Made by a program: the position numbers and the translations under genes. The notes under the pieces were generated by a model. It made no database searches, was not told the DNA's origin, and saw nothing but the letters and a program-made list of their open reading frames with translations. Shown here in pieces: positions 3,798 through 54,726 of a DNA stretch of 64,000 nt; positions within the stretch are counted from its first letter, which is position 1, and each line of letters starts with the position of its first letter. Location of the stretch: positions 3,169,394 to 3,233,393 of the forward strand of contig OY730443.1 in NCBI GenBank assembly GCA_963422705.1. Reading direction: 5' to 3'. Origin of the DNA: Candidatus Poribacteria bacterium. GTDB taxonomy: Bacteria; Poribacteria; WGA-4E; WGA-3G.

Positions 3798-3921
3798 TTC
3801 TTGCCGATGATGCTAAAAATCAGTCGCTATTTCGATGGAAGAATTTCATTCATGATTCTCGCGTTGATTTACAGGCGTACTGTTATTCACAAGTTTTTTG
3901 AGGACGGAGCAACAGGATTAC

Positions 3922-3955
3922 GGAGCCCCGTGACAAGGTGAGGGGCTCCTTTTCC
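3922..3955 (+). terminator. Intrinsic terminator downstream of the TPR gene
   Basis: ggagcccc-gtgacaaggtga-ggggctcc hairpin (8-bp GC stem) followed by a TTTTCC run. Confidence 0.55.
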
Positions 3956-4032
3956 GTCACAACCGCGGTGAATTTTTATGGGCACGGCACCTTTTCAGGC
4001 CAAAACGACTTTCGCACACTTGCAAGGTACCT

Positions 4033-5772
4033 ATGCGAGAAAGCATGATACTCATCATCATCTTAGTAGTCTTGTTCACACCGCAACGTAGTAAGGCTTT
4101 CCGCTGCGGCACTTCCGAATTGATAGAAAATGCAGACGCCATCACCCCGTTGCAGGAACCTGCAGCAACTGCCCCGGCCCCGCTCCTCGCGATTGGCACC
4201 GAACGGACGTTCTTTGCCCCGGATTTTCGCAGCAGGCAATCCTACACTGTGAGGGCAGTTTTGCGAGGTGTCGGTAAATACTGTTATGTTTATGTCGAAG
4301 AGTCTGAATGGGATGCGCGCGTTACGCCTGACACCGTCACGAACATTGTTCGCGCTTTCGATGAGCGCACCCCGACACAATCCCGGGGCATCTATCCGAC
4401 GTTGACACATGTGTTCGGTGCGCCGCCGGATATTGATGCCAATGGGCGCATCATCTTACTCCTCTTAAACATCCGCGATGCGTTCGAAAACAGCGGTACC
4501 TACACCGCCGGCTTTTTCAACCCTGCCGATCAGCAGCGCGGTTTCCTTCGTCACCCCGGCGCGCGTGGACTTTCTATCCGCAGTAACGTCGCTGATATGC
4601 TCTATATTGATACGCGTCCGCTCCCCATTCACTCCCCGCATGCCCATAATGTCATCGCCCATGAGCTGCAACATCTTATCCATTGGCGACACGATGCGCG
4701 CGAAGCCGTTTGGGTGGATGAGGGTTGTTCGGACTACGCCGCTTTTCTCTGCGGTTATTTCTCAGAGGAACACGTCGCCGCTTTTGAAAAAACGCCCACG
4801 GTTTCTCTTACCCACTGGCCAGAAAACCATAACGTTTCACTGGCACATTACGGTGCCGCTTTTCTTTGGATGCTGTACCTCCATGAACACTACGGCGGCC
4901 CAGACACTGTCGCTGCCATCGTGAAGCATCCCTCCACCGATATCGACGGCATTACGGCTGTCCTCCTTGAACTCGGTTTTTTGGATGGAACACAACCCCG
5001 TTTGCCCTGGCATCGCACTGAGACAATCGAATTGGCAAAAAACGAAATTCTGTCAGTCACCGATATTTTCGTCGATTGGCAAGTTGCCAACCTCCTTTCC
5101 GGCTACAAGTTGATACGCCGGCTGACTCTGACTCCTACAGACATGCATCGAGACTATCCATTCTACGGGGAAAGTGTCATTCCGCCCTTCGCTGCTGAGT
5201 TCCTTCACTTCGCGCTTCCCAACCGAAATGAAACGCTCACGCTCCGTTTTTCAGGCGGCAATCCTGCTGTTGCCGACTGGGCAGTGCACCTTGTTGAATG
5301 GCATTCAAACACCCGCATTCACATTCGAGAGATGTCTTTAAAAACGAATAGAGACACCGGCAATTTAAACATTAGCCCTGCCGCCACGGCAGCACTTCTC
5401 ATCCCCAGTTTGCAACCCGAAGCCGCCCGTCTAGCTCCGATAAACAGCGTTCCGTATCAATATAGCGCGACACGGGGTGGAAATGTTACTTTCATCACCA
5501 GCGTCTTGCCAAACCCGGTGCATCCACAGTACTGGGAGATTATCGCGCAAACGAATGAACCTCTCATCGGGTTCACCCCGACGATTACGCTTGAGTACCT
5601 TGAGCGCCAGACTCTTGTTGAAGAGGCGCCCATGCGTCAACTACCGCGCAGCGGAAGCTATCGATATACCGTCCGGCTAGCGCCTGAGCAAGTCCCGGCT
5701 GATGTGACGTGGTATCTCTTTCTTGATGCACGGCGCGTTGAACAAGGGACTTTCAGCGATATTCCAAAGTAG
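4033..5772 (+). CDS. Secreted zincin-like metalloprotease-fold protein (HExxH), function unknown
   Basis: Signal peptide MRESMILIIILVVLFTPQRSKA. HELQH motif with downstream DEGCSDY. No closer family is recognisable by eye. Confidence 0.5.
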   Translation: MRESMILIIILVVLFTPQRSKAFRCGTSELIENADAITPLQEPAATAPAPLLAIGTERTFFAPDFRSRQSYTVRAVLRGVGKYCYVYVEESEWDARVTPDTVTNIVRAFDERTPTQSRGIYPTLTHVFGAPPDIDANGRIILLLLNIRDAFENSGTYTAGFFNPADQQRGFLRHPGARGLSIRSNVADMLYIDTRPLPIHSPHAHNVIAHELQHLIHWRHDAREAVWVDEGCSDYAAFLCGYFSEEHVAAFEKTPTVSLTHWPENHNVSLAHYGAAFLWMLYLHEHYGGPDTVAAIVKHPSTDIDGITAVLLELGFLDGTQPRLPWHRTETIELAKNEILSVTDIFVDWQVANLLSGYKLIRRLTLTPTDMHRDYPFYGESVIPPFAAEFLHFALPNRNETLTLRFSGGNPAVADWAVHLVEWHSNTRIHIREMSLKTNRDTGNLNISPAATAALLIPSLQPEAARLAPINSVPYQYSATRGGNVTFITSVLPNPVHPQYWEIIAQTNEPLIGFTPTITLEYLERQTLVEEAPMRQLPRSGSYRYTVRLAPEQVPADVTWYLFLDARRVEQGTFSDIPK

Positions 5773-25453: not shown

Positions 25454-26344
25454 CTAACGCAGACGCCGATCCGCTAACTTGATCACCTGTCCAGTTTCCT
25501 GTGCAATATACATATAGCCGAGCCCATCTAACACAACCCCCTCTTGTTCGTCCCCGGGTAATAAATATTGACTTAGAATTGTACCATCCGGTTTGAGCTC
25601 TATGAGTAGATTCGTTGTGTCGCTAATCAGGACAAGGCATTTCGCACGCTCATCATAGGCGAGCCCAGAGATATCAATGAAGTTCATCTGATGGTAACGG
25701 ATAATCCTCCCTTCTGTTCTATCGGCTTGTGAGGAGCGCAGCGGGACAACTACTTCGCATATAACCGATGGCTCATCTTCCGGCTTCAGACTGAAGGTTT
25801 GATTGCCAACCCAAAAGGTACCGCCCTCCGGATGAGACGCATCCGGAATAAAAACGATTGCCTCGATGCCCATTCCGCCTTTTTTCAAGAGTGTTTTACT
25901 TTCAAACTTCCTATTGATTGCAAATTCTCTCTGAATGATAAGCGTGGCCGGGTCGATTTCCAAAATCGTTTCGTCATCTTCAATAACGGTGTATAGCCAA
26001 CCGGTATCAGGGTTAACGGTAATTCCTTCCAGGTCTCGTTCGTTCAACATTTTTGATTGAACCAGTGTTCCGTCTATTGTCCTGATTTCATGAATACTCC
26101 CAGAATCGTCGGCGACAAACAGGCTGCGCCGCGTCGGGTGATAGGTGATACCGGAGGGTTCAGCAATATTCGCATCCGTGATATTGCCTAGCCAATTATA
26201 GGGGAGCTCAATCGGGCGAGAACCCGTGTGCTTGTTTCTTACGGAGTGTTCTACCTGATTTAGAACATAGACTAAGGAGGCACTGATAGCGATTATTGAA
26301 ATGATTATGAGTGCTCTATTATACGACATTGGGTTACTCTGCAT
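25454..26344 (-). CDS. SdiA-regulated/YjiK-like beta-propeller protein
   Basis: N-terminal TM/signal peptide. IAEPSGITYHP...LFVADDSG and repeated blade-like segments. Confidence 0.5.
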   Translation of the reverse strand: MQSNPMSYNRALIIISIIAISASLVYVLNQVEHSVRNKHTGSRPIELPYNWLGNITDANIAEPSGITYHPTRRSLFVADDSGSIHEIRTIDGTLVQSKMLNERDLEGITVNPDTGWLYTVIEDDETILEIDPATLIIQREFAINRKFESKTLLKKGGMGIEAIVFIPDASHPEGGTFWVGNQTFSLKPEDEPSVICEVVVPLRSSQADRTEGRIIRYHQMNFIDISGLAYDERAKCLVLISDTTNLLIELKPDGTILSQYLLPGDEQEGVVLDGLGYMYIAQETGQVIKLADRRLR

Positions 26345-26549
26345 AGGAGGATTGTTTAAATGCCCCTCAATGTTATTCCTATTTTATCATATTTTATGGA
26401 ATTAACCAAATAGTCTTTGGGCGCGGTTCGGGTTATTTCGGTTTTGGCATTTTTGTATTTGTAGATTTGCCGGAAGTGAGCGCTGGGGTTCCCCCTACCG
26501 GGATGTCTTGTGGGGAAGAGCCCGTTCTTAACGAAGACCCGTTCTTGAC

Positions 26550-26996
26550 GGAGAATTGTAGTAGATGCTGAAAATAAGGGGACATTAGCGTATCAATTTT
26601 GTCGACAGGACGAGCGTCGCCGCAAGGTAACGTATCTGCCTCATCACTTGTTAGGGGGTGATGTACCATGAAAACTTATTCGTATCAATGTAGAGATTCA
26701 TCCAATTGTATTCGGCTTGGCAACTTTCTTGACGATATGTGGCAAGTGGATATGTATTTCCATAAGCGGCAGCGTCAACAGGATAAAGACGGATTATCAT
26801 GCGATGCGCGCACACGTGATTAAGTTGAAGCGGTGCCCCCCGGCATTGGAATGTTTTGCCGAGTCAAGTCCTCTAAGAGGAAATCAAACGTATTTACGCG
26901 GGACATCCGCGTTTTTTCAATAAATCTGGCGGTAACCCCATATCAAACCGCAGTTGCTATGAAACCGAAGCTGACCTTTTAGGGTGTGGCTATCAC
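26550..26996 (+). mobile_element. MITE/PATE-like internal-deletion derivative of the IS200/IS605-like element at 43.7 kb
   Basis: Left part matches that element's left end (LE) and tnpB 5' end (cgtatcaa, then ATGAAAACTTAT...cttgacgatatgtggcaagtg). The junction is at a shared aaacc, followed by a right end (RE) matching accgcagttgctatgaaaccgaagc...ctatcac. Flanked on the left by TTGAC. Confidence 0.6.
26669..26821 (+). pseudogene. tnpB: tnpB 5' fragment (51 codons) inside the MITE-like element
   Basis: MKTYSYQ...LGNFLDDMWQVDMYFHKRQRQQ parallels the N-terminus of TnpB at 43857 (MKTYKYP...IGNQLDDMWQVHVYFHKWQRH). Confidence 0.6.
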
Positions 26997-27050
26997 TTGA
27001 CATATTGCTCCTTAGGTGATATACTAATTCATTAAAGAAGGAGATTCCCT

Positions 27051-28466
27051 ATGTCAAACATGCCGAGGTTAGTGGTTGAAGTCTTTGAACATGTGAATTT
27101 TCAAGGCCGGAAAGTGACGCTGATTGAGTCAATCCCAAATACCGGGGAAATTGGTGCCCAGGATATTATCTCTTCGGTTAAGATTTACAAAGGACCAGGA
27201 TTTAATGCATCACCGAACTATAAAGCGATTTTTCATGAGCATGAGGGCTATAGGGGACGCAGGCTCGTGTTAGCCCCCGGGTTCTATTCAAACATTCACG
27301 AGATTCCATACAACTTCGGGGATGCAATTACTTCTATCAGTTTTAGTCCATCTGCACATCCGACACCCCCGGAGTACGGGGCTGTCCCGGTTATCATTGA
27401 GGTATTTCGCGATGTTGACTACAGTGGGCAGCACAGCGTTATCATGCGGGATGTTAGTTCTATGTTTGACATCGGGATGAACGATACGATTTCATCAATT
27501 CGCATTCAACGTGGCCCGAGTTTTCCGTTTAGTGGATGCCATGTCGTATTCTATGAGCACGTGAATTTTGAAGGGCGTCGGCTGAGTCTCACTTTAAGTT
27601 CACAAGAATTCCGCGTATCGATTCGGAATCTGCGTTCGTTACCCCACTCCCAGTCATTTTCAGATATTATTTCGTCTTTAAAGATTGTCCCATTAGGTGT
27701 TTTCCGGGTTTTAATTGTTGTTGGTGATAGTATGAGCGGGGAGCCTGCAGTGCTCGAGTCGCTAACGACTTTGGAAGGGTTGAAATTCCAATTTGCGACG
27801 GTGCATATTAATGATAATCCTGACAATCGCGGTGATGCGAATAACGCCATTAAGCTCTCAAGCGTGCCGCTTTCCGATTACGATATCATCTGGTTTACGT
27901 GGAATGCGCCGGGGCACGATGGCGAATATTTTATGGAGGATGCCGACTATGCAATTCGGGATTTTGTCCGGAAGGGTGGTATCGTGTGGGCTTCTGCGAT
28001 GGATAATAACATCATCCCGCCTGATGGCGTGCATACAACGGAACCGACTTGGCGCGGGGAATGGCTACCCGTTGACAGGCATCCCATCCGGGTAATCAAT
28101 TCTAATGACGGGAACATCACGGTAACCGGAGACGGCCAGAAAACCGGCCTCTTTACCTGGCCTCATAAAATTAATGTTGATGCACTTGTTACCGACGATA
28201 ATTGGGTGACGGACGACTCGAGTTATCGCAAATTAGCAATCAGAGAGGATAACGAGGATGCTGTCAGCGTTCAGCTACAGTGGGGTGAGGGCTACTACGT
28301 CACCTTTGCTGTGGATACTCGGGATGCTTACCGCACAACCATATCCAAGCCGCTTATTGAAAATGCGCTCTGTTACTTGGCAAACCTCGCTTGGCAGACG
28401 TCGCCCCGTCAACCGCTCAAAGGCCGGTATCGGACACATCATAGCAGCGATACCATCTTTCGTTAA
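27051..28466 (+). CDS. Beta/gamma-crystallin-domain protein with an uncharacterised C-terminal domain
   Basis: Three Greek-key pairs, for example VVEVFEHVNFQGRKV...ISSVKI, IIEVFRDVDYSGQH...ISSIRI, VVFYEHVNFEGRRL. RBS AAGGAG. Confidence 0.6.
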   Translation: MSNMPRLVVEVFEHVNFQGRKVTLIESIPNTGEIGAQDIISSVKIYKGPGFNASPNYKAIFHEHEGYRGRRLVLAPGFYSNIHEIPYNFGDAITSISFSPSAHPTPPEYGAVPVIIEVFRDVDYSGQHSVIMRDVSSMFDIGMNDTISSIRIQRGPSFPFSGCHVVFYEHVNFEGRRLSLTLSSQEFRVSIRNLRSLPHSQSFSDIISSLKIVPLGVFRVLIVVGDSMSGEPAVLESLTTLEGLKFQFATVHINDNPDNRGDANNAIKLSSVPLSDYDIIWFTWNAPGHDGEYFMEDADYAIRDFVRKGGIVWASAMDNNIIPPDGVHTTEPTWRGEWLPVDRHPIRVINSNDGNITVTGDGQKTGLFTWPHKINVDALVTDDNWVTDDSSYRKLAIREDNEDAVSVQLQWGEGYYVTFAVDTRDAYRTTISKPLIENALCYLANLAWQTSPRQPLKGRYRTHHSSDTIFR

Positions 28467-43613: not shown

Positions 43614-44182
43614 TTCTATGAATGGTTCCTTTATTTTATCTGTTTTCAGGGTTTACGGGCATTCGTTTGTTTTGCCCAATCCTTTAGGTTTGGGATATAA
43701 GCCCGCTAAGGGCCTAATCCTTGTGAAATAAATTTGACTTTTCTGCTAAAAATGTGATATCATATTCGTATCAAGTTGGCAGACATGAACAGCGTTACCA
43801 CTTGGTAGCGTGTCTGCCTACCCACTAGGGGTTTAAGACTTGAAACTTGATAGTCCATGAAAACCTATAAATACCCGCTTGGGAAACAATCTAATACGAT
43901 GCGCATTGGAAATCAGCTTGACGATATGTGGCAGGTGCATGTGTATTTCCATAAGTGGCAGCGTCACCGGTATAAATATGGTTTGCCGTATGCCAACTAC
44001 GCTGCAATGTGTCAACATGCATGCATATTGAAACGAACCACACATCCACATTGGAAGTTGTTGCCAAGCCAAGCCATCCAAGCAGAGCTAGAACGAATTG
44101 ATAATGCGTATCAAAGGTTCTTTAATAAACTGGGAGGTAACCCCCATATCAAACCTCGCCATAAGTTTAAGTCTATCACGCT

Positions 44183-44288
44183 GAAACAAACTGGATTTAA
44201 ACTGACTGATAACCGTATTACACTCACTTTTCGTCGAAACAAACTGGATTTAAACTGACTGATAACCGTATTACACTCACTTTTCGTC
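44183..44288 (+). repeat. 53-bp perfect tandem duplication (gaaacaaactggatttaaactgactgataaccgtattacactcacttttcgtc x2) that frameshifts tnpB
   Basis: Copy 1 is 44183..44235 and copy 2 is 44236..44288. 53 is not a multiple of 3, and a TAA lies just after the junction. Confidence 0.9.
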
Positions 44289-44668
44289 AGTGGGATAAAG
44301 GGAAGTGGCGATTTGATAAAGTGCCAACTACGTTTCATAAGCACCGCCAGTGGCATGGGACTCTCCGTCGTATCACAATCAAATGTGATAATTGTGGCGA
44401 CTATTGGCTTTACATCATAACGGATGACACCGATTTTAAACCGCTGCCGACAACAGGTAAAAGCGTTGGGGCAGACTTCGGAATGAAAGACGCGTACTTG
44501 ACACTTAGCACGGGTGAGAAGATACAACACCCCGAACCTTTGAAACAGTCCTTGAACAAACTTCGGACTCTCAATAAAGCGTTTTCTCGTAAAGTTAAAG
44601 GTTCTGGCAACTGGTGGCGATGTGTCAGGCAACTTGCACGTCTGTATCGGAAAATTAGCAACCACCGC

Positions 44669-44691
44669 GAAACGGCGGTTTCGCCCTACGC
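44669..44691 (+). repeat. 23-nt hairpin mini-repeat gaaacggcggtttcgccctacgc, copy 1, in-frame inside tnpB-1 (encodes ..ETAVSPYA..)
   Basis: Identical 23-mer found four times in the window. Stem gaaac/gtttc with loop ggcgg. Absent from the aligned position of the second TnpB. Confidence 0.85.
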
Positions 44692-44949
44692 TAAAGATTT
44701 TCACTGGCAACTGGCAAGTGAACTTTGTAAAAAGTTTTCTTGCTTTGTCCTTGAGACGTTGAACCTTGACGGCATGAAACGACTGTGGGGGCGTAAAGTC
44801 TCGGACCTCGCCTTCTACCAGTTCGTTGAGATATTGGAATATAAGTGCAGTAAACATAAACGTATGAGGAAACAAATCGGACAATGGACGCCGACAACGA
44901 AGCCGTGTTCAGATTGTGGGTATCACAACAAAGAACTAAGACTTTCAGA

Positions 44950-45171
44950 TAGGCAGTGGACATGCCCCGACTGTGGTCCACACCACGACAGAGACATCAA
45001 CGCTGCGATAAACATTTTGCGGGCAGGGATAGCCGTCACTTGACGATATGCCTGTAGAAAACTACAGGGAAATGCCCGTAGGTGGAGCGACAGTAAGACG
45101 GTGGACACTTTGAGAAAACCGCAGTTGCTATGAAACCGAAGCCCCACGCTTTAGCGTGTGGGTGCTATCAC
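44950..45171 (+). ncRNA. Candidate TnpB-associated reRNA/omegaRNA scaffold (3' end of tnpB plus RE)
   Basis: By analogy with IS200/IS605 TnpB systems, the guide RNA derives from the tnpB 3' end through the RE boundary (…ctatcac at 45171). The 5' boundary is a guess. Confidence 0.3.
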
Positions 45172-45600
45172 GAAAGTATAATATAGAATGTCCGATGTGT
45201 CCAGAATGATTTTGTCCGAATGAGTTATCGTAGGTTTTAAAAGGAGTGATACCGTTCCCAATGAGAACCTTGCAGGCGCGCTTGCCAAGTGCGCAGTTTG
45301 AGACAGCTCCGGTGAAGATAAATGTCGCGGTATTTTTCTACTACACTGTAATTCTCGACTAGAAAGTCAATAACCCCCGACTTCAGTCGGGGGCTTGTGC
45401 GAAGCGTATACCAAACGTTCACTCCACAAGTTAAACGATTTTCTACAGTAAAATATCGCTTTATCTGGGCGTGGTGGCCTAAACAATGTTTCGGATACTC
45501 CCCTCGTCCGATTCACGCTACGATATTGCGCTCTGGAAGGGGCAATATACAACCCGTAAGGGAGATTACAAACGATGTTTGTTCCGGTGACGAGTCAAAC
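45172..45600 (+). ncRNA. Candidate omegaRNA for the downstream IsrB-like gene (about 400-nt ORF-poor structured region)
   Basis: Lies immediately 5' of, and overlapping, the IsrB-like start, as in IscB/IsrB loci. Contains a strong hairpin cccccgac-ttca-gtcggggg (45374..45393). No convincing protein ORF. Confidence 0.35.
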
Positions 45601-46375
45601 AGGTGCCTTGTTGATGCCGACGCGTGCGAACAAGGCGGGCATGCTGATTAAGAAAGGTTTCGCCACGCCCTATTGGTCAAATGGGATATTCTGTATCCGG
45701 CTTAACTATGCTACCGAAGCCGCATACACACAAGATATCGTCGTCGGTGTAGAACCCGGTAGCAAGAAAGAAGGCTTTACCGTCACATCAGCATCTCATA
45801 CCTATTTGAATGTTCAGGCAGACGCTCACGTCGGTGTCGGTAAGAAAGTGGCGAAGCGTCGAGAGTTGCGTAGAAGTCGGCGTTCACGAAAGTGTCCGAA
45901 TCGCAAGAATAGAACCAACCGTCTTGCGAATAGAGCGCGTATCCCCGCAGGCACACGTGCGAGATGGGACTGGAAACTTCGGATATTGGATTGGTTGTCC
46001 AAACTGTATCCGGTTAGCCACGTTTGTGTTGAGGATATTAAGGCACGGACAATAGAACGTGCGAAGAAGTGGAACACCTCCTTTAGTCCGCTTCAAGTTG
46101 GTAAACAGTGGTTCTATCGCGAAATCCGTAAACGGTGGGAACTGTTCACTTTACAAGGGTGGGAGACGAAAGAAATACGAGAGAGGTTAGGTCTCAAGAA
46201 GTCTTCAAAGAAACTATCGGAACCCTTTGATGCGCATTGCGTAGATTCTTGGTGTCTGGCACATCATACCGTAGGCGGTTTGGATATACCCGATAACACG
46301 TCGCTTCCGAAACGGCGGTTTCGCCCTACGCTTGTGTATCTCACCGATACCGATAAAACGCAGAGAGTTGCATAG
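45575..46375 (+). CDS. Compact IsrB-like (HNH-less IscB) OMEGA nuclease, 266 aa
   Basis: N-terminal PLMP-like domain (GALLMPTRANKAGMLIKKGFATPYW). RuvC-I IVVGVEPGSKKEGFTV. Arg-rich bridge helix KRRELRRSRRSRKCPNRKNRTNR. RuvC-II VSHVCVEDIKA. RuvC-III FDAHCVDSWCLAHH. No CxxC/HNH insert between RuvC-II and RuvC-III. Confidence 0.6.
   Translation: MFVPVTSQTGALLMPTRANKAGMLIKKGFATPYWSNGIFCIRLNYATEAAYTQDIVVGVEPGSKKEGFTVTSASHTYLNVQADAHVGVGKKVAKRRELRRSRRSRKCPNRKNRTNRLANRARIPAGTRARWDWKLRILDWLSKLYPVSHVCVEDIKARTIERAKKWNTSFSPLQVGKQWFYREIRKRWELFTLQGWETKEIRERLGLKKSSKKLSEPFDAHCVDSWCLAHHTVGGLDIPDNTSLPKRRFRPTLVYLTDTDKTQRVA
46309..46331 (+). repeat. Same 23-nt hairpin mini-repeat, copy 2, in-frame near the 3' end of the IsrB-like gene (encodes ..KRRFRPTL..)
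   Basis: Exact 23-mer match. Confidence 0.85.
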
Positions 46376-52416: not shown

Positions 52417-52535
52417 GGACAAAGCTGCAGAAATCCCGGAGCCCTTTACCCCAGAAAGCTTTAAAGCTCCCCCGTCAAATCCCCATGCTTTAGCTTTCGG
52501 GATGTAGACGGCGAAGTTCCTGATAGAACATATAG

Positions 52536-52564
52536 TTGACAATCTAATCATAATGTGGTATAAT
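52536..52564 (+). promoter_or_regulatory. Consensus sigma70 promoter for tnpA formed at the IS left junction
   Basis: TTGACA (52536..52541), exactly 17 nt, then TATAAT (52559..52564). The TTGAC is the candidate target pentamer that also flanks the other IS LE. Confidence 0.55.
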
Positions 52565-52672
52565 ATACGATACACGATAATAGAAAGGTAAGATATTATA
52601 CCTCTCAAAATCGCGAATAAGAAACGTAATGACAAAACAAGCAACAAGACACTCTCTAGTTGTCAATATCAC

Positions 52673-53041
52673 GTGATTTGGTGTACCAAGTATCGTCGTA
52701 AGGTTTTGGATACACAGATACAAGGACGCCTGAAACACCTCATACGAGAAAAACAGGACGCGTCTGAATATCAAATCTGTGAGGGTGAAACTCACCCTGA
52801 ACCTGTCCATTTGCTAATAGAAATACCGCCAATACATGCTATTGATAAAATCGTTGGCAAAATCAAAGGTTATACCGCGGCAAGCATGTTGCTTGCTACC
52901 TTTAAAGTTTTGCGAGAAGAATATCCGTGCCTGAAAAGTCGTTTGCCGTCTTTATGGACACGTTCAAAGTTTGTCAGTTCCTGTGGTGGCGTAACGCTCC
53001 AAGTCATCAAGGACTATATTGAAGCTCAAAGTGGACAATGA
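52673..53041 (+). CDS. tnpA: IS200/IS605 HUH (Y1) transposase TnpA
   Basis: HVIWCTKYRRKVL…HLLIEIPP… motif pattern of IS200 TnpA. Homology continues upstream to about 52625 (NDKTSNKTLSSCQYHV) with no in-frame ATG, and the ATG at 52629 is in the +1 frame. Confidence 0.8.
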   Translation: MIWCTKYRRKVLDTQIQGRLKHLIREKQDASEYQICEGETHPEPVHLLIEIPPIHAIDKIVGKIKGYTAASMLLATFKVLREEYPCLKSRLPSLWTRSKFVSSCGGVTLQVIKDYIEAQSGQ

Positions 53042-54268
53042 GAAAAGCCAGCAAGTTCAAACTTCAAAATCAATCGAACATCGTCAAAATCGGCAATATG
53101 CTTGACGATATGTGGCAGATACACCAGCAATTCATGCTTTTACAGCGTAGGTTTTAAGGTGATGATAAGTTGCATGAGAAATCTCCGACGAGATTATTAA
53201 GGGATTGTCAAAAACAGCAGAAGCTCAACCGACTAAGCACGACGAAAAATCGCATGTTCGGCTTTCAACCTGCCCGCATCTCGCATCAACAAACATATTG
53301 TGAAACTCAAGAAGCGCACAAAACCACATTGGGCAGACTTGCCGAGTCAAGTTGTGCAAGACGTTGTTCTGCGATATGGCAAATCACAAGACGCATTTTT
53401 CCAAAACATAGAAGAACGCAAAGCCGGTAAGACAAGACGTAAAGTCGGTAAACCGAAAATCAAACCGAGACACAAATACACCTCTATGACTTTCACACAA
53501 AGCGTAGGGCGAAACCGCCGTTTCGCGGGCTACACACTTGAAAAAAATCGTATCAAAATCAACGGTATAGATACGTGGTTCTCCTTCCACAAACACCGTG
53601 AAATCAACGGGACAATCAAGACGATAACACTCAAACGGGACAGGTGCGGTGATTATTGGATATGCTTTTCGTGCGCGAATGTTGACGATTCCGAACCGAA
53701 ACTCAAGACGGGTAAGAGCGCAGGGTTTGATTACGGAAACAAAACATTCCTTACAAGCGACGAAGGCAACAAGATAGAATCTCCGCAGTTTTTCAAACAC
53801 TCCCTGAAAACGTTGCGATGCCTGAGCAAAGCCCTGAGTCGTAAAGTCAAAGGTTCTAACAACTATTATCGTGCGTGTCGTGCTTTGGCGAGGCACCACA
53901 GAAAAGTCGCGCGCCAAAGAGAAGAGTGGCAGTGGAAACTTGCCACCGAACTTTGCACGGCGTTTGATATACTCTGTTTTGAAACACTGAATCTTGACGG
54001 TATGAAACGCCTTTGGGGACGCAAAGTCTCTGAACACGCAGAGGATCAGTTCATACAGATATTGGAACAGAAGTGTGCAAAGCATGGTAAAAAACTTGAG
54101 CGAATCAGTCAGTGGACACCTACAACAAAACCATGCAGTGATTGCGGATACCATAATCAAGAACTCTCTCTTTCTGATAGACAGTGGACTTGTCCCGACT
54201 GTGGTTCTCATCACGATAGAGACGTCAACGCTGCTATCAATATCAAACGGGCAGGCTTGGCTGCCTAA
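53038..54268 (+). pseudogene. tnpB: TnpB gene interrupted near codon 40 by a foreign about 130-nt segment (N-terminal fragment 53038..53160, remainder 53300..54268)
   Basis: N-terminal fragment MRKASKFKLQNQSNIVKIGNMLDDMWQIHQQ… then a stop. The remainder resumes at the equivalent of about residue 65 (KLKKRTKPHW…) and runs to CSDCGYHNQELSLSDRQWTCPDCGSHHDRDVNAAINI. Confidence 0.75.
53502..53524 (-). repeat. Same 23-nt hairpin mini-repeat, copy 4 (reverse orientation), in-frame inside tnpB-2 (encodes ..GRNRRFAG..)
   Basis: Exact reverse-complement 23-mer match. Absent from the aligned position of TnpB-1. Confidence 0.85.
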
Positions 54269-54488
54269 AGTGGAGCGACAATGAGACGGGGTTTCTCTCA
54301 GAGAAAAGCGCCGTCGCTACGAAGCACAAGCCCCTACCTTCAGGGAGTGGGTACCTATGCTGCTATCAATATCAAACGGGCAGGCTTGGCTGCCTAAAGT
54401 GGAGCGACAATGAGACGGGGTTTCTCTCAGAGAAAAGCGCCGTCGCTACGAAGCACAAGCCCCTACCTTCAGGGAGTGGGTACCTATG
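54231..54488 (+). repeat. 129-bp perfect tandem duplication spanning the last 12 codons of tnpB-2 plus the RE
   Basis: Copy 1 is 54231..54359 and copy 2 is 54360..54488. Each begins ctgctatcaatatcaaacgggcaggcttggctgcctaaagtggagcgacaatgagacgg… and ends …gggtacctatg. Confidence 0.9.
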
Positions 54489-54726
54489 ACAGCGACGTTT
54501 AAAGCCTATTTTGTGAAATTCGGCCTCGCCTATCGCATTCGGATGGATACGATGATTGCCCTGTTTATTTTTTTATGGCAATTTACCGATTGATAGCGGC
54601 GCAAGCGCGACGGCTCTGGCTGCACTGCGCGACGGGTGTCTTAAAGTTCGACGAACGGGATTTGGCCAGTACCTCATTTATTCTCCGGTAGTAAATCAGT
54701 CATGTTTAAAATCGACTACCCTCTCT

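Follow-up and report, generated by a model that had tools for sequence, protein, structure and literature searches.

A probable fossil of a TnpB transposon in a Candidatus Poribacteria genome, and the Poribacteria lineage to which it belongs

The stretch of about 430 bp analyzed here is best read as what an IS200/IS605-type TnpB transposon has left behind in a Poribacteria genome: a dead remnant with an internal deletion. It would then be an ordinary transposon fossil, neither a working miniature element nor a guide-RNA gene; we give this reading a probability of roughly 0.85. The relic lies in a window of 64,000 nucleotides (the whole stretch of DNA that was analyzed), within a spacer of 706 nt that is flanked by an SdiA-regulated/phytase-like gene on the minus strand (25454-26344) and a beta/gamma-crystallin-like gene on the plus strand (27051-28466). 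The reading is carried by what can be seen in the relic itself: its homology to a TnpB element elsewhere in the window, a deletion junction, the right end (RE) boundary, missing strands of the RNA scaffold, degenerate hairpins, and the lesions of a pseudogene. Its features, and those of the full-length copy that serves as reference, are as follows.

Relic and flank
26440-26583, plus strand: possible very degenerate outer left end (LE), or host intergenic DNA; no significant similarity to the family LE hairpin or border
26545-26549, plus strand: TTGAC earlier taken as the target site; a chance pentamer 11 nt upstream of the -35-homologous position
26556-26585, plus strand: apparent position of the lost LE-internal promoter, by positional alignment to the full copy and the family
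26584-26667, plus strand: inner LE remnant (5' leader, from the LE promoter to the tnpB start codon), degenerate; nhmmer LE profile
26668-26949, plus strand: tnpB pseudogene remnant, codons 1 to ~101; TBLASTN (E 7e-20) and three-frame translation
26945-26949, plus strand: AAACC microhomology at the deletion junction, where tnpB codon ~101 runs into the final 52 nt of the RE
26945-26996, plus strand: terminal 52 nt of the RE, with core, degenerate hairpin, and end motif CTATCAC; BLASTN, CM, and fold
26997-27025, plus strand: host promoter TTGACA-17-TATACT of the beta/gamma-crystallin-like gene (27051-28466); promoter scan, 11/12

Full-length copy
43653-43656: TTAC flank
43657-45171, plus strand: full-length tnpB-only (IS1341-like) copy, 1515 bp, the reference element
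43675-43694: LE hairpin
43734-43763: promoter TTGACT-18-TATCAT
43857-45043: tnpB, broken only by a perfect 53-bp tandem duplication (44183-44288)
45017-45171: omega RNA scaffold

Origin of the relic and its deletion junction

BLASTN of positions 26401-27100 against the window returned four collinear matches, all to one other place, the TnpB element at 43657-45171: 26589-26641 with 43767-43819 (74% identity), 26728-26795 with 43917-43984 (85%, E 8e-17), 26844-26949 with 44049-44155 (68%), and 26945-26996 with 45116-45171 (84%, E 9e-10). As a whole, 26584-26996 is collinear with that element over the inner LE leader, tnpB codons 1 to ~101, and the last 52 nt of the RE, and TBLASTN with TnpB matches the relic over residues 1-101 only (E 7e-20). 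The homology lies far beyond chance. The derivation from a TnpB element proposed in the first-pass annotation is upheld by these matches and by a profile HMM match to the LE (E 1.5e-14).

The protein of the reference copy is a bona fide TnpB: with one repeat of the duplication removed it has 377 aa, carries the Pfam domains OrfB_IS605 and Cas12f1-like_TNB, and matches the ISDra2 TnpB structures 8BF8/8EXA/8H1J over residues 35-374 (E 9e-35). Since the 53-bp duplication is the only lesion in an otherwise intact tnpB, the inactivation of this copy is very recent. At a distance of about 400 bp on its downstream side lies a plus-strand ORF of 266 aa (45575-46375) with an RRXRR domain (Pfam, E 7e-27). 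RRXRR is the N-terminal, RuvC-I-containing part of IscB-like proteins; as the ORF is too short for IscB or IsrB, it is probably a fragment.

The window also holds a third IS200/IS605 element, of IS605 type (52460-54490, plus strand), with a family-type LE hairpin at 52470-52491 and a promoter, TTGACA-17-TATAAT, at 52536-52564. Its tnpB has a broken N-terminus, and a 322-aa ORF (53300-54268) retains both TnpB domains. A perfect tandem duplication of 129 bp (54230-54488; 2.0 copies, 100% identical) covers the 3' end of this tnpB and the RE/omega RNA, so that the RE is present twice, head to tail; either a recent duplication or an assembly artefact could account for this. Taken together, the 53-bp and 129-bp duplications suggest either frequent slippage in the source genome or a problem of long-read assembly.

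In the full copy, the pentamer AAACC stands at 44151-44155 (tnpB codon ~100) and again at 45116-45120 (52 nt before the RE end). The relic joins these two sites, which points to one deletion between 5-nt repeats, just as had been proposed from the shared microhomology. Measured against the full copy, the deletion spans ~965 bp, or ~912 bp when the 53-bp duplication of that copy is discounted. The junction reads ...CCCCATATCAAACC joined to GCAGTTGCTATGAAACCGAAGC (also written ATATCAAACC joined to GCAGTTGC), and the 30-mer that crosses it is CCCCATATCAAACCGCAGTTGCTATGAAAC.

Upstream of the junction, tnpB survives only as a pseudogene. Codons 1-43 stand in one frame, at 60% aa identity to the full copy; codons 52-96 follow in a second frame, with three in-frame stops; and the last five codons (PHIKP) lie in a third. 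The earlier estimate that the first ~50 codons of tnpB were kept understates what is left, namely ~100 degenerate codons, of which only the first 51 form an open frame; at least two frameshifts and at least three stops come after them. The 51-aa remnant ORF is on record nowhere else by exact look-up. The relic encodes no domain, and its small ORFs on both strands are without a Pfam match. With nothing but a 5' pseudogene fragment of tnpB, it lacks functional coding capacity, as a PATE or MITE does, and it is no longer able to make TnpB.

An exact 20-mer from the shared RE core, searched through 185,579 species-representative genomes, retrieved 45 loci, all of them in Candidatus Poribacteria MAGs (sponge symbionts). 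The count of miniature versus full-length copies that had been recommended as a check could be made for the family, in a set that excludes the source genome, and none of the 45 loci carries the relic junction. A scan of JGI metagenomes likewise gave no match to the junction, nor to the right flank of the relic. Exact look-up of the flanking gene led to an identical contig only (L001), with no variant.

The order of events, the mechanism of the deletion, and the loss of mobility we infer from the present sequence. A full-length element of ~1.46 kb would have landed immediately before the -35 box that serves the crystallin-like gene. Between the AAACC pentamers, one deletion of ~0.9 kb, by replication slippage or microhomology-mediated repair, would then have removed tnpB from codon ~102 to its end, and the same event would have taken the 5' two-thirds of the omega RNA scaffold. 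Later decay presumably brought the frameshifts and stops into tnpB, destroyed the LE promoter boxes, and weakened the RE hairpin; the outer LE with its TnpA-binding hairpin would have been deleted or have become unrecognizable.

Ends, promoter, and RNA scaffold

At the RE, the relic retains a 27-nt core (AAACCGCAGTTGCTATGAAACCGAAGC) identical to that of the full copy. The terminal hairpin, CTGACC-TTTTA-GGGTGTGG, is degenerate: as DNA it forms ~4 pairs at -2.5 kcal/mol (z -0.5), where family copies give -5.3 to -7.5. The relic does have the end motif CTATCAC. All 45 family copies are conserved up to ...GGT(G/A)(C/G)(T/C)ATCAC and diverge directly after it; upstream of the RE end, all continue GTGGAGCGACAGTNAGACGG...GAGAAAACCG. 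In the relic, CTATCAC is followed immediately by TTGACA (26996/26997), and the RE terminus at CTATCAC was thus correctly placed in the first-pass annotation, as was the position, directly after ...ATCAC, at which a guide would start. In its location, then—at the RE, with any guide running from the first base outside the element at the 26996 boundary—the relic agrees with an omega RNA. The perfect core in an otherwise diverged relic could hint at constraint; the probability that 27 nt remain unchanged by chance is ~0.06 at ~10% decay of family-invariant positions, which is not significant.

The omega RNA of the family was modeled from the last ~155-180 nt of 41 copies, which yielded a consensus of 157 positions with 32 base pairs in six helices. 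The closing stem, CGGGCA...TGCCCG, and the terminal hairpin, CCCCNNCC-TTTA-GGNNGTGGG, each show five covarying pairs, and the core pairings GGT/ACC, AGCGAC/GTTGCT, and GACGG/CCGC are invariant. Paired cells make up 98.5% of the alignment, as against 30-52% with slid partners; 13 pairs have compensatory changes, and the observed values were reached by none of 500 shuffles. Rfam 15 holds no counterpart to this RNA: the family omega RNA matches no Rfam family, and the window has no match at gathering score, nor does 26350-27060 at E<=1.

Scored against this model, the full copy reaches 162 bits (162.2; 45017-45171) and the diverged omega RNA of the third element 67 bits (54339-54490). The relic reaches 23 bits (23.3; 26894-26996), with only model positions ~103-157 genuinely aligned. 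Four of the six helices have at least one strand in the deleted part: helix 1 is wholly gone, and helices 2-4 have lost their 5' strands (GGTGGAGCGAC...GACGG) and kept their 3' strands. In ISDra2, the functional scaffold of 116 nt is built from four stems plus a pseudoknot between -5..-3 and -103..-105; only trims of the 5' extension and of stem 3b are tolerated, and the smallest active scaffold retains stems 1, 2, 3a, and 4 plus the pseudoknot (PMC10097598). On this analogy, and on the family's own structure, the 52-nt remnant would be unable to serve as a TnpB guide scaffold, and the relic is predicted to fold no TnpB-binding guide RNA and hence to have lost its RNA function. The first-pass view that the 3' scaffold was kept and would encode a guide is not supported, as only the 3' third is left (23 vs 162 bits). 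As to the supply of such an RNA or its partner, the LE promoter boxes of the relic appear destroyed, and both tnpB genes in the window are disrupted.

The LE alignment was built from the regions upstream of tnpB in 21 full copies and the window copies. The family LE measures ~200 nt and reads, in order, border motif, ~20 nt, a hairpin (CCCCATGC-TTTA-GCTTGCGGG) that resembles the RE hairpin, ~35 nt, promoter, structured leader, and ATG. Its left border, where homology between copies starts, is TTAC or TTANC in 21/21 listed copies. The full copy has this hairpin at 43675-43694 and the third element has it at 52470-52491; profile HMM, pairwise alignment, and folding did not find it upstream of 26584. 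With nhmmer, the LE profile HMM scores 175 bits on the full copy and 83 bits on the third element (outer LE). On the relic it scores 47 bits (26584-26678, E 1.5e-14; envelope from 26564) over HMM positions 130-239 only. For the ~130 nt of outer LE that should lie upstream of 26584, with subterminal hairpin and promoter, there was no nhmmer match at E<=1000; shuffle-controlled pairwise alignment gave z <=1.4, except for one 19-nt promoter-spacer match to the family copy L035 (z 3.5). A by-eye alignment of 26446-26583 to the LE was dropped, as neither the HMM nor the shuffled-control alignments were significant. The statement that the relic keeps its LE is accordingly right for the inner leader next to the ATG and, at these thresholds, unsupported for the outer ~130 nt.

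One family tnpB (L011) is interrupted at ~codon 100 by a ~1.07-kb insertion (context ~226-1300 upstream of its RE) and was considered as a natural empty site that might reveal the TAM of the family. It was rejected because what interrupts the gene is an unrelated IS of the DDE-transposase kind, which brings terminal inverted repeats of its own (CTTGTGCTAATTAG / CTAATTAGCACAAG) and a 342-aa DDE-type transposase-like ORF.

In 22 aligned left ends, a TATAAT-like box follows TTGAC(A/T) at a distance of 17-18 nt, and TTGAC(A/T) itself lies ~77 nt into the LE; because of this placement, TTGAC in the family is the -35 box of an element-internal promoter, and no target site. In the relic, the -35 position reads TTGTAG (26556-26561) in place of TTGACA/T and the -10 position GGACAT (26580-26585) in place of TATAAT/TATCAT, and a promoter scan of 26556-26585 found none. 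Both promoter boxes thus appear destroyed, if the spacing relative to GTATCAA places them correctly. The pentamers that had been thought to border both elements on the left do exist (TTGAC at 26545-26549 and 43734-43738), but no element border lies at either site. The target specificity for TTGAC drawn from them can be set aside: the true border is TTAC/TTANC, the TTGAC of the relic sits at a non-homologous position, and the window contains the pentamer 147 times where chance predicts 148. With no more than two copies to compare, a -35 box conserved within the LE can pass for a target motif.

Between promoter and start codon, the tnpB leaders of the family and of the full copy (43764-43856) show apparent covariation of GTATCAAGT, which closely follows the -10 box, with ACTTGATAC, which closely precedes the ATG (CACGT/GCGTG, CATGT/GCATG, and CAGGT/GCCTG in L003, L004, and L018). 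This pairing encloses a long hairpin, CAGACA...TGTCTG, and may be a translational control structure, as in IS200. In the leader of the relic, the conserved long-range pairing has lost its 3' partner (AGACTTGATAC), and two mismatches interrupt the CAGACA/TGTCTG stem.

Alternative readings of the locus

The host promoter at 26997-27025 directly abuts the RE end and is the only promoter-like site in the region. What was called a guide is this promoter flank, which lies outside the element, and the adjacent TTGACA that such a guide would have been directed against is the -35 box of the crystallin-like gene (11/12 promoter match). Orthologous SdiA-regulated/crystallin loci, fetched through homologues at 80-85% aa identity, carry the same box: in three other Poribacteria (L047, L049, L050), cTTGACAaa stands upstream of the same crystallin-like gene. 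Synteny is conserved at these loci and the intergenic DNA is too diverged, so that no clean empty site was obtained from them.

This arrangement raises the possibility that the relic has been exapted, either as promoter context or, through a terminator-like hairpin, as an insulator against read-through into the crystallin-like gene. The RE does stop right where the -35 hexamer of a promoter with an 11/12 consensus match begins, and the tnpB remnant contains a terminator-like hairpin, ACGCGGGACATCCGCGT followed by the T-run TTTTTCAATA (26896-26912, plus strand), that is absent at the homologous place in the full copy. However, three terminator-like matches in 800 nt against 0.7 expected are a weak signal, and the orthologous promoters work without the insert while sharing the cTTGACAaa box. 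One ortholog, L047, from a related species (85% aa identity in the flanking gene), has an RE-hairpin-like relic in the same intergenic region, yet at a different position, downstream of the cTTGACAaa box. We consider exaptation very unlikely.

That ortholog relic is a solo RE-hairpin-like sequence, CGAACCCCTATGCCTTAGTATATGGGTGATACCAC (L047 3951-3985, and L048 1794-1828; CM 18.8 bits), 16 nt upstream of the ATG of the crystallin gene. As the positions of the L047 relic and the window relic differ, they suggest independent insertions into the same spacer.

A second alternative, and the one favored by the first-pass annotation, is an active MITE/PATE-like element that is mobilized in trans by TnpA and expresses a guide RNA against the adjacent TTGACATATTGCTCC. 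The layout of the relic—part of an LE, a short interior, an RE end—is like that of a miniature element, the motif ATCAC at the end of the RE is intact, as is the 27-nt core, and other Poribacteria genomes do hold genuine PATE-like minis of this family. Full tnpB is present in about two-thirds of the family copies with enough context (46-83% aa identity to the window protein), and 11/45 loci, of ~450-540 bp each, lack tnpB altogether (L009, L010, L016, L023, L024, L030, L033, L038, L041, L043, and L045; in L010, for example, ~3880-4406). These minis combine a complete LE (border, hairpin, promoter) and a complete 157-nt scaffold and RE with a middle of ~200 nt that is conserved, mini-specific, and apparently structured, with a covarying stem GGTAGCG...CGCTACC; this middle has no match in full-length copies and none in Rfam. 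Between species, the minis are 70-95% identical, and their flanks differ. To judge from their sequence, they resemble mobile guide-RNA genes that stand alone and are driven by a promoter.

PATE-like derivatives of the Poribacteria TnpB lineage are thus a reality, and the window relic is not among them, because it keeps a 5' fragment of tnpB that the minis lack and is without the complete ends that they keep. Set against the active element is the fact that the relic has neither the complete LE nor the complete 157-nt scaffold of the true minis. Its ends are not intact, with the outer LE undetectable, the RE hairpin degenerate, and the promoter boxes apparently lost. Nor is it multi-copy within the reach of the search: the junction has no second copy in the 45 family loci or the JGI metagenomes, a search set to which the source genome does not belong. 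The relic contains no Y1 tnpA, and among the 45 loci there is only a tnpA fragment, in L025. The sole tnpA of the window, that of the third element (52673-53041; Pfam Y1_Tnp, E 1.5e-27), has its N-terminus out of frame and reads P-V-H at the HUH site. Scrambling either end abolishes excision by TnpA, which is also dependent on the LE-adjacent motif (PMC10055086). Mobilization in trans is not supported, given the weak RE hairpin, the undetectable LE hairpin, the want of a second junction copy, and a window tnpA that looks defective; judged on its ends, the relic almost certainly cannot be excised by Y1 TnpA transposase. We regard an active element as very unlikely.

More improbable still, to the point of being hardly credible, is that the relic is alive in a reduced form, with a diverged LE (~26440-26583) and a 52-nt RE that suffice for TnpA, the RE serving as an ultra-minimal guide-RNA scaffold or a TnpB decoy; such a scaffold would be far smaller than any omega RNA known to work. 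IStron/group I intron and TldR-type readings were rejected on finding no intron model match, an LE of only ~200 nt, and no nuclease-dead TnpB. Finally, although each matching segment is short and only 68-85% identical, a chance resemblance confined to short motifs, or an assembly artefact, can be dismissed in view of four collinear segments with E down to 8e-17 (DNA) and 7e-20 (protein), the profile HMM match at 1.5e-14, and an independently assembled Logan contig (ERR11641160) that is 100% identical over the 6.6 kb spanning the region.

The Poribacteria lineage among known elements

Read as an ordinary fossil, the relic itself matters little for the window, to which it adds one more decaying insertion-sequence remnant, and it should be annotated as a tnpB pseudogene fragment with a solo RE end, not as a guide-RNA locus. 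What the comparison newly defines is a Poribacteria-restricted IS200/IS605 lineage with its ends, an internal sigma-70-type promoter, a TTAC/TTANC border, and a covariation-supported omega RNA of 157 nt. The promoter-equipped, tnpB-less omega-RNA minis of other Poribacteria genomes are a more interesting lead than the relic.

The parent family agrees with the IS200/IS605 elements (IS605/IS608/ISDra2, IS1341) in most respects. Its TnpB, with RuvC and zinc-ribbon domains, is homologous to ISDra2 TnpB; subterminal imperfect hairpins stand at both ends, with no terminal inverted repeats; the omega RNA lies at the tnpB 3' end and RE, with the guide running from the RE boundary; and one related window copy carries a Y1 tnpA. 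The TTAC/TTANC motif that abuts the LE resembles the TTAC of IS608 and the TTTAT of the Geobacillus elements (PMC10055086). The lineage differs in that, as far as sampled, it is confined to Candidatus Poribacteria (45/45 matches), and in having an omega RNA outside Rfam. The relic, for its part, departs from IS200/IS605 elements: the tnpB codons beyond 101 are gone, as are two-thirds of the omega RNA, the LE has lost both hairpin and promoter, and the RE hairpin is no longer stable.

A similar division applies to the omega RNA of ISDra2. The family RNA is alike in position, at the tnpB 3' end and RE with the guide just outside the RE; in size, at 157 nt against a functional core of 116 nt; and in its multi-helix architecture with long-range pairing. 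The relic differs, with ~52 nt kept that represent the 3' strands of helices.

PATE-like, tnpB-less IS200/IS605 minis have been described from Haloquadratum and Geobacillus stearothermophilus (PMC3119063, PMC10055086). The relic is like PATEs in being short, non-coding, and derived from IS200/IS605, but PATEs keep both functional ends and are multi-copy, whereas the ends of the relic are degenerate or missing and it is single-copy as far as searchable. From the PATE-like minis of Poribacteria it differs also in retaining a tnpB 5' pseudogene fragment. The closest likeness in kind is to generic, internally deleted IS remnants, with one deletion between 5-nt direct repeats followed by what would be neutral decay through frameshifts, stops, and loss of promoter boxes; from such microhomology-deleted remnants the relic shows no notable difference.
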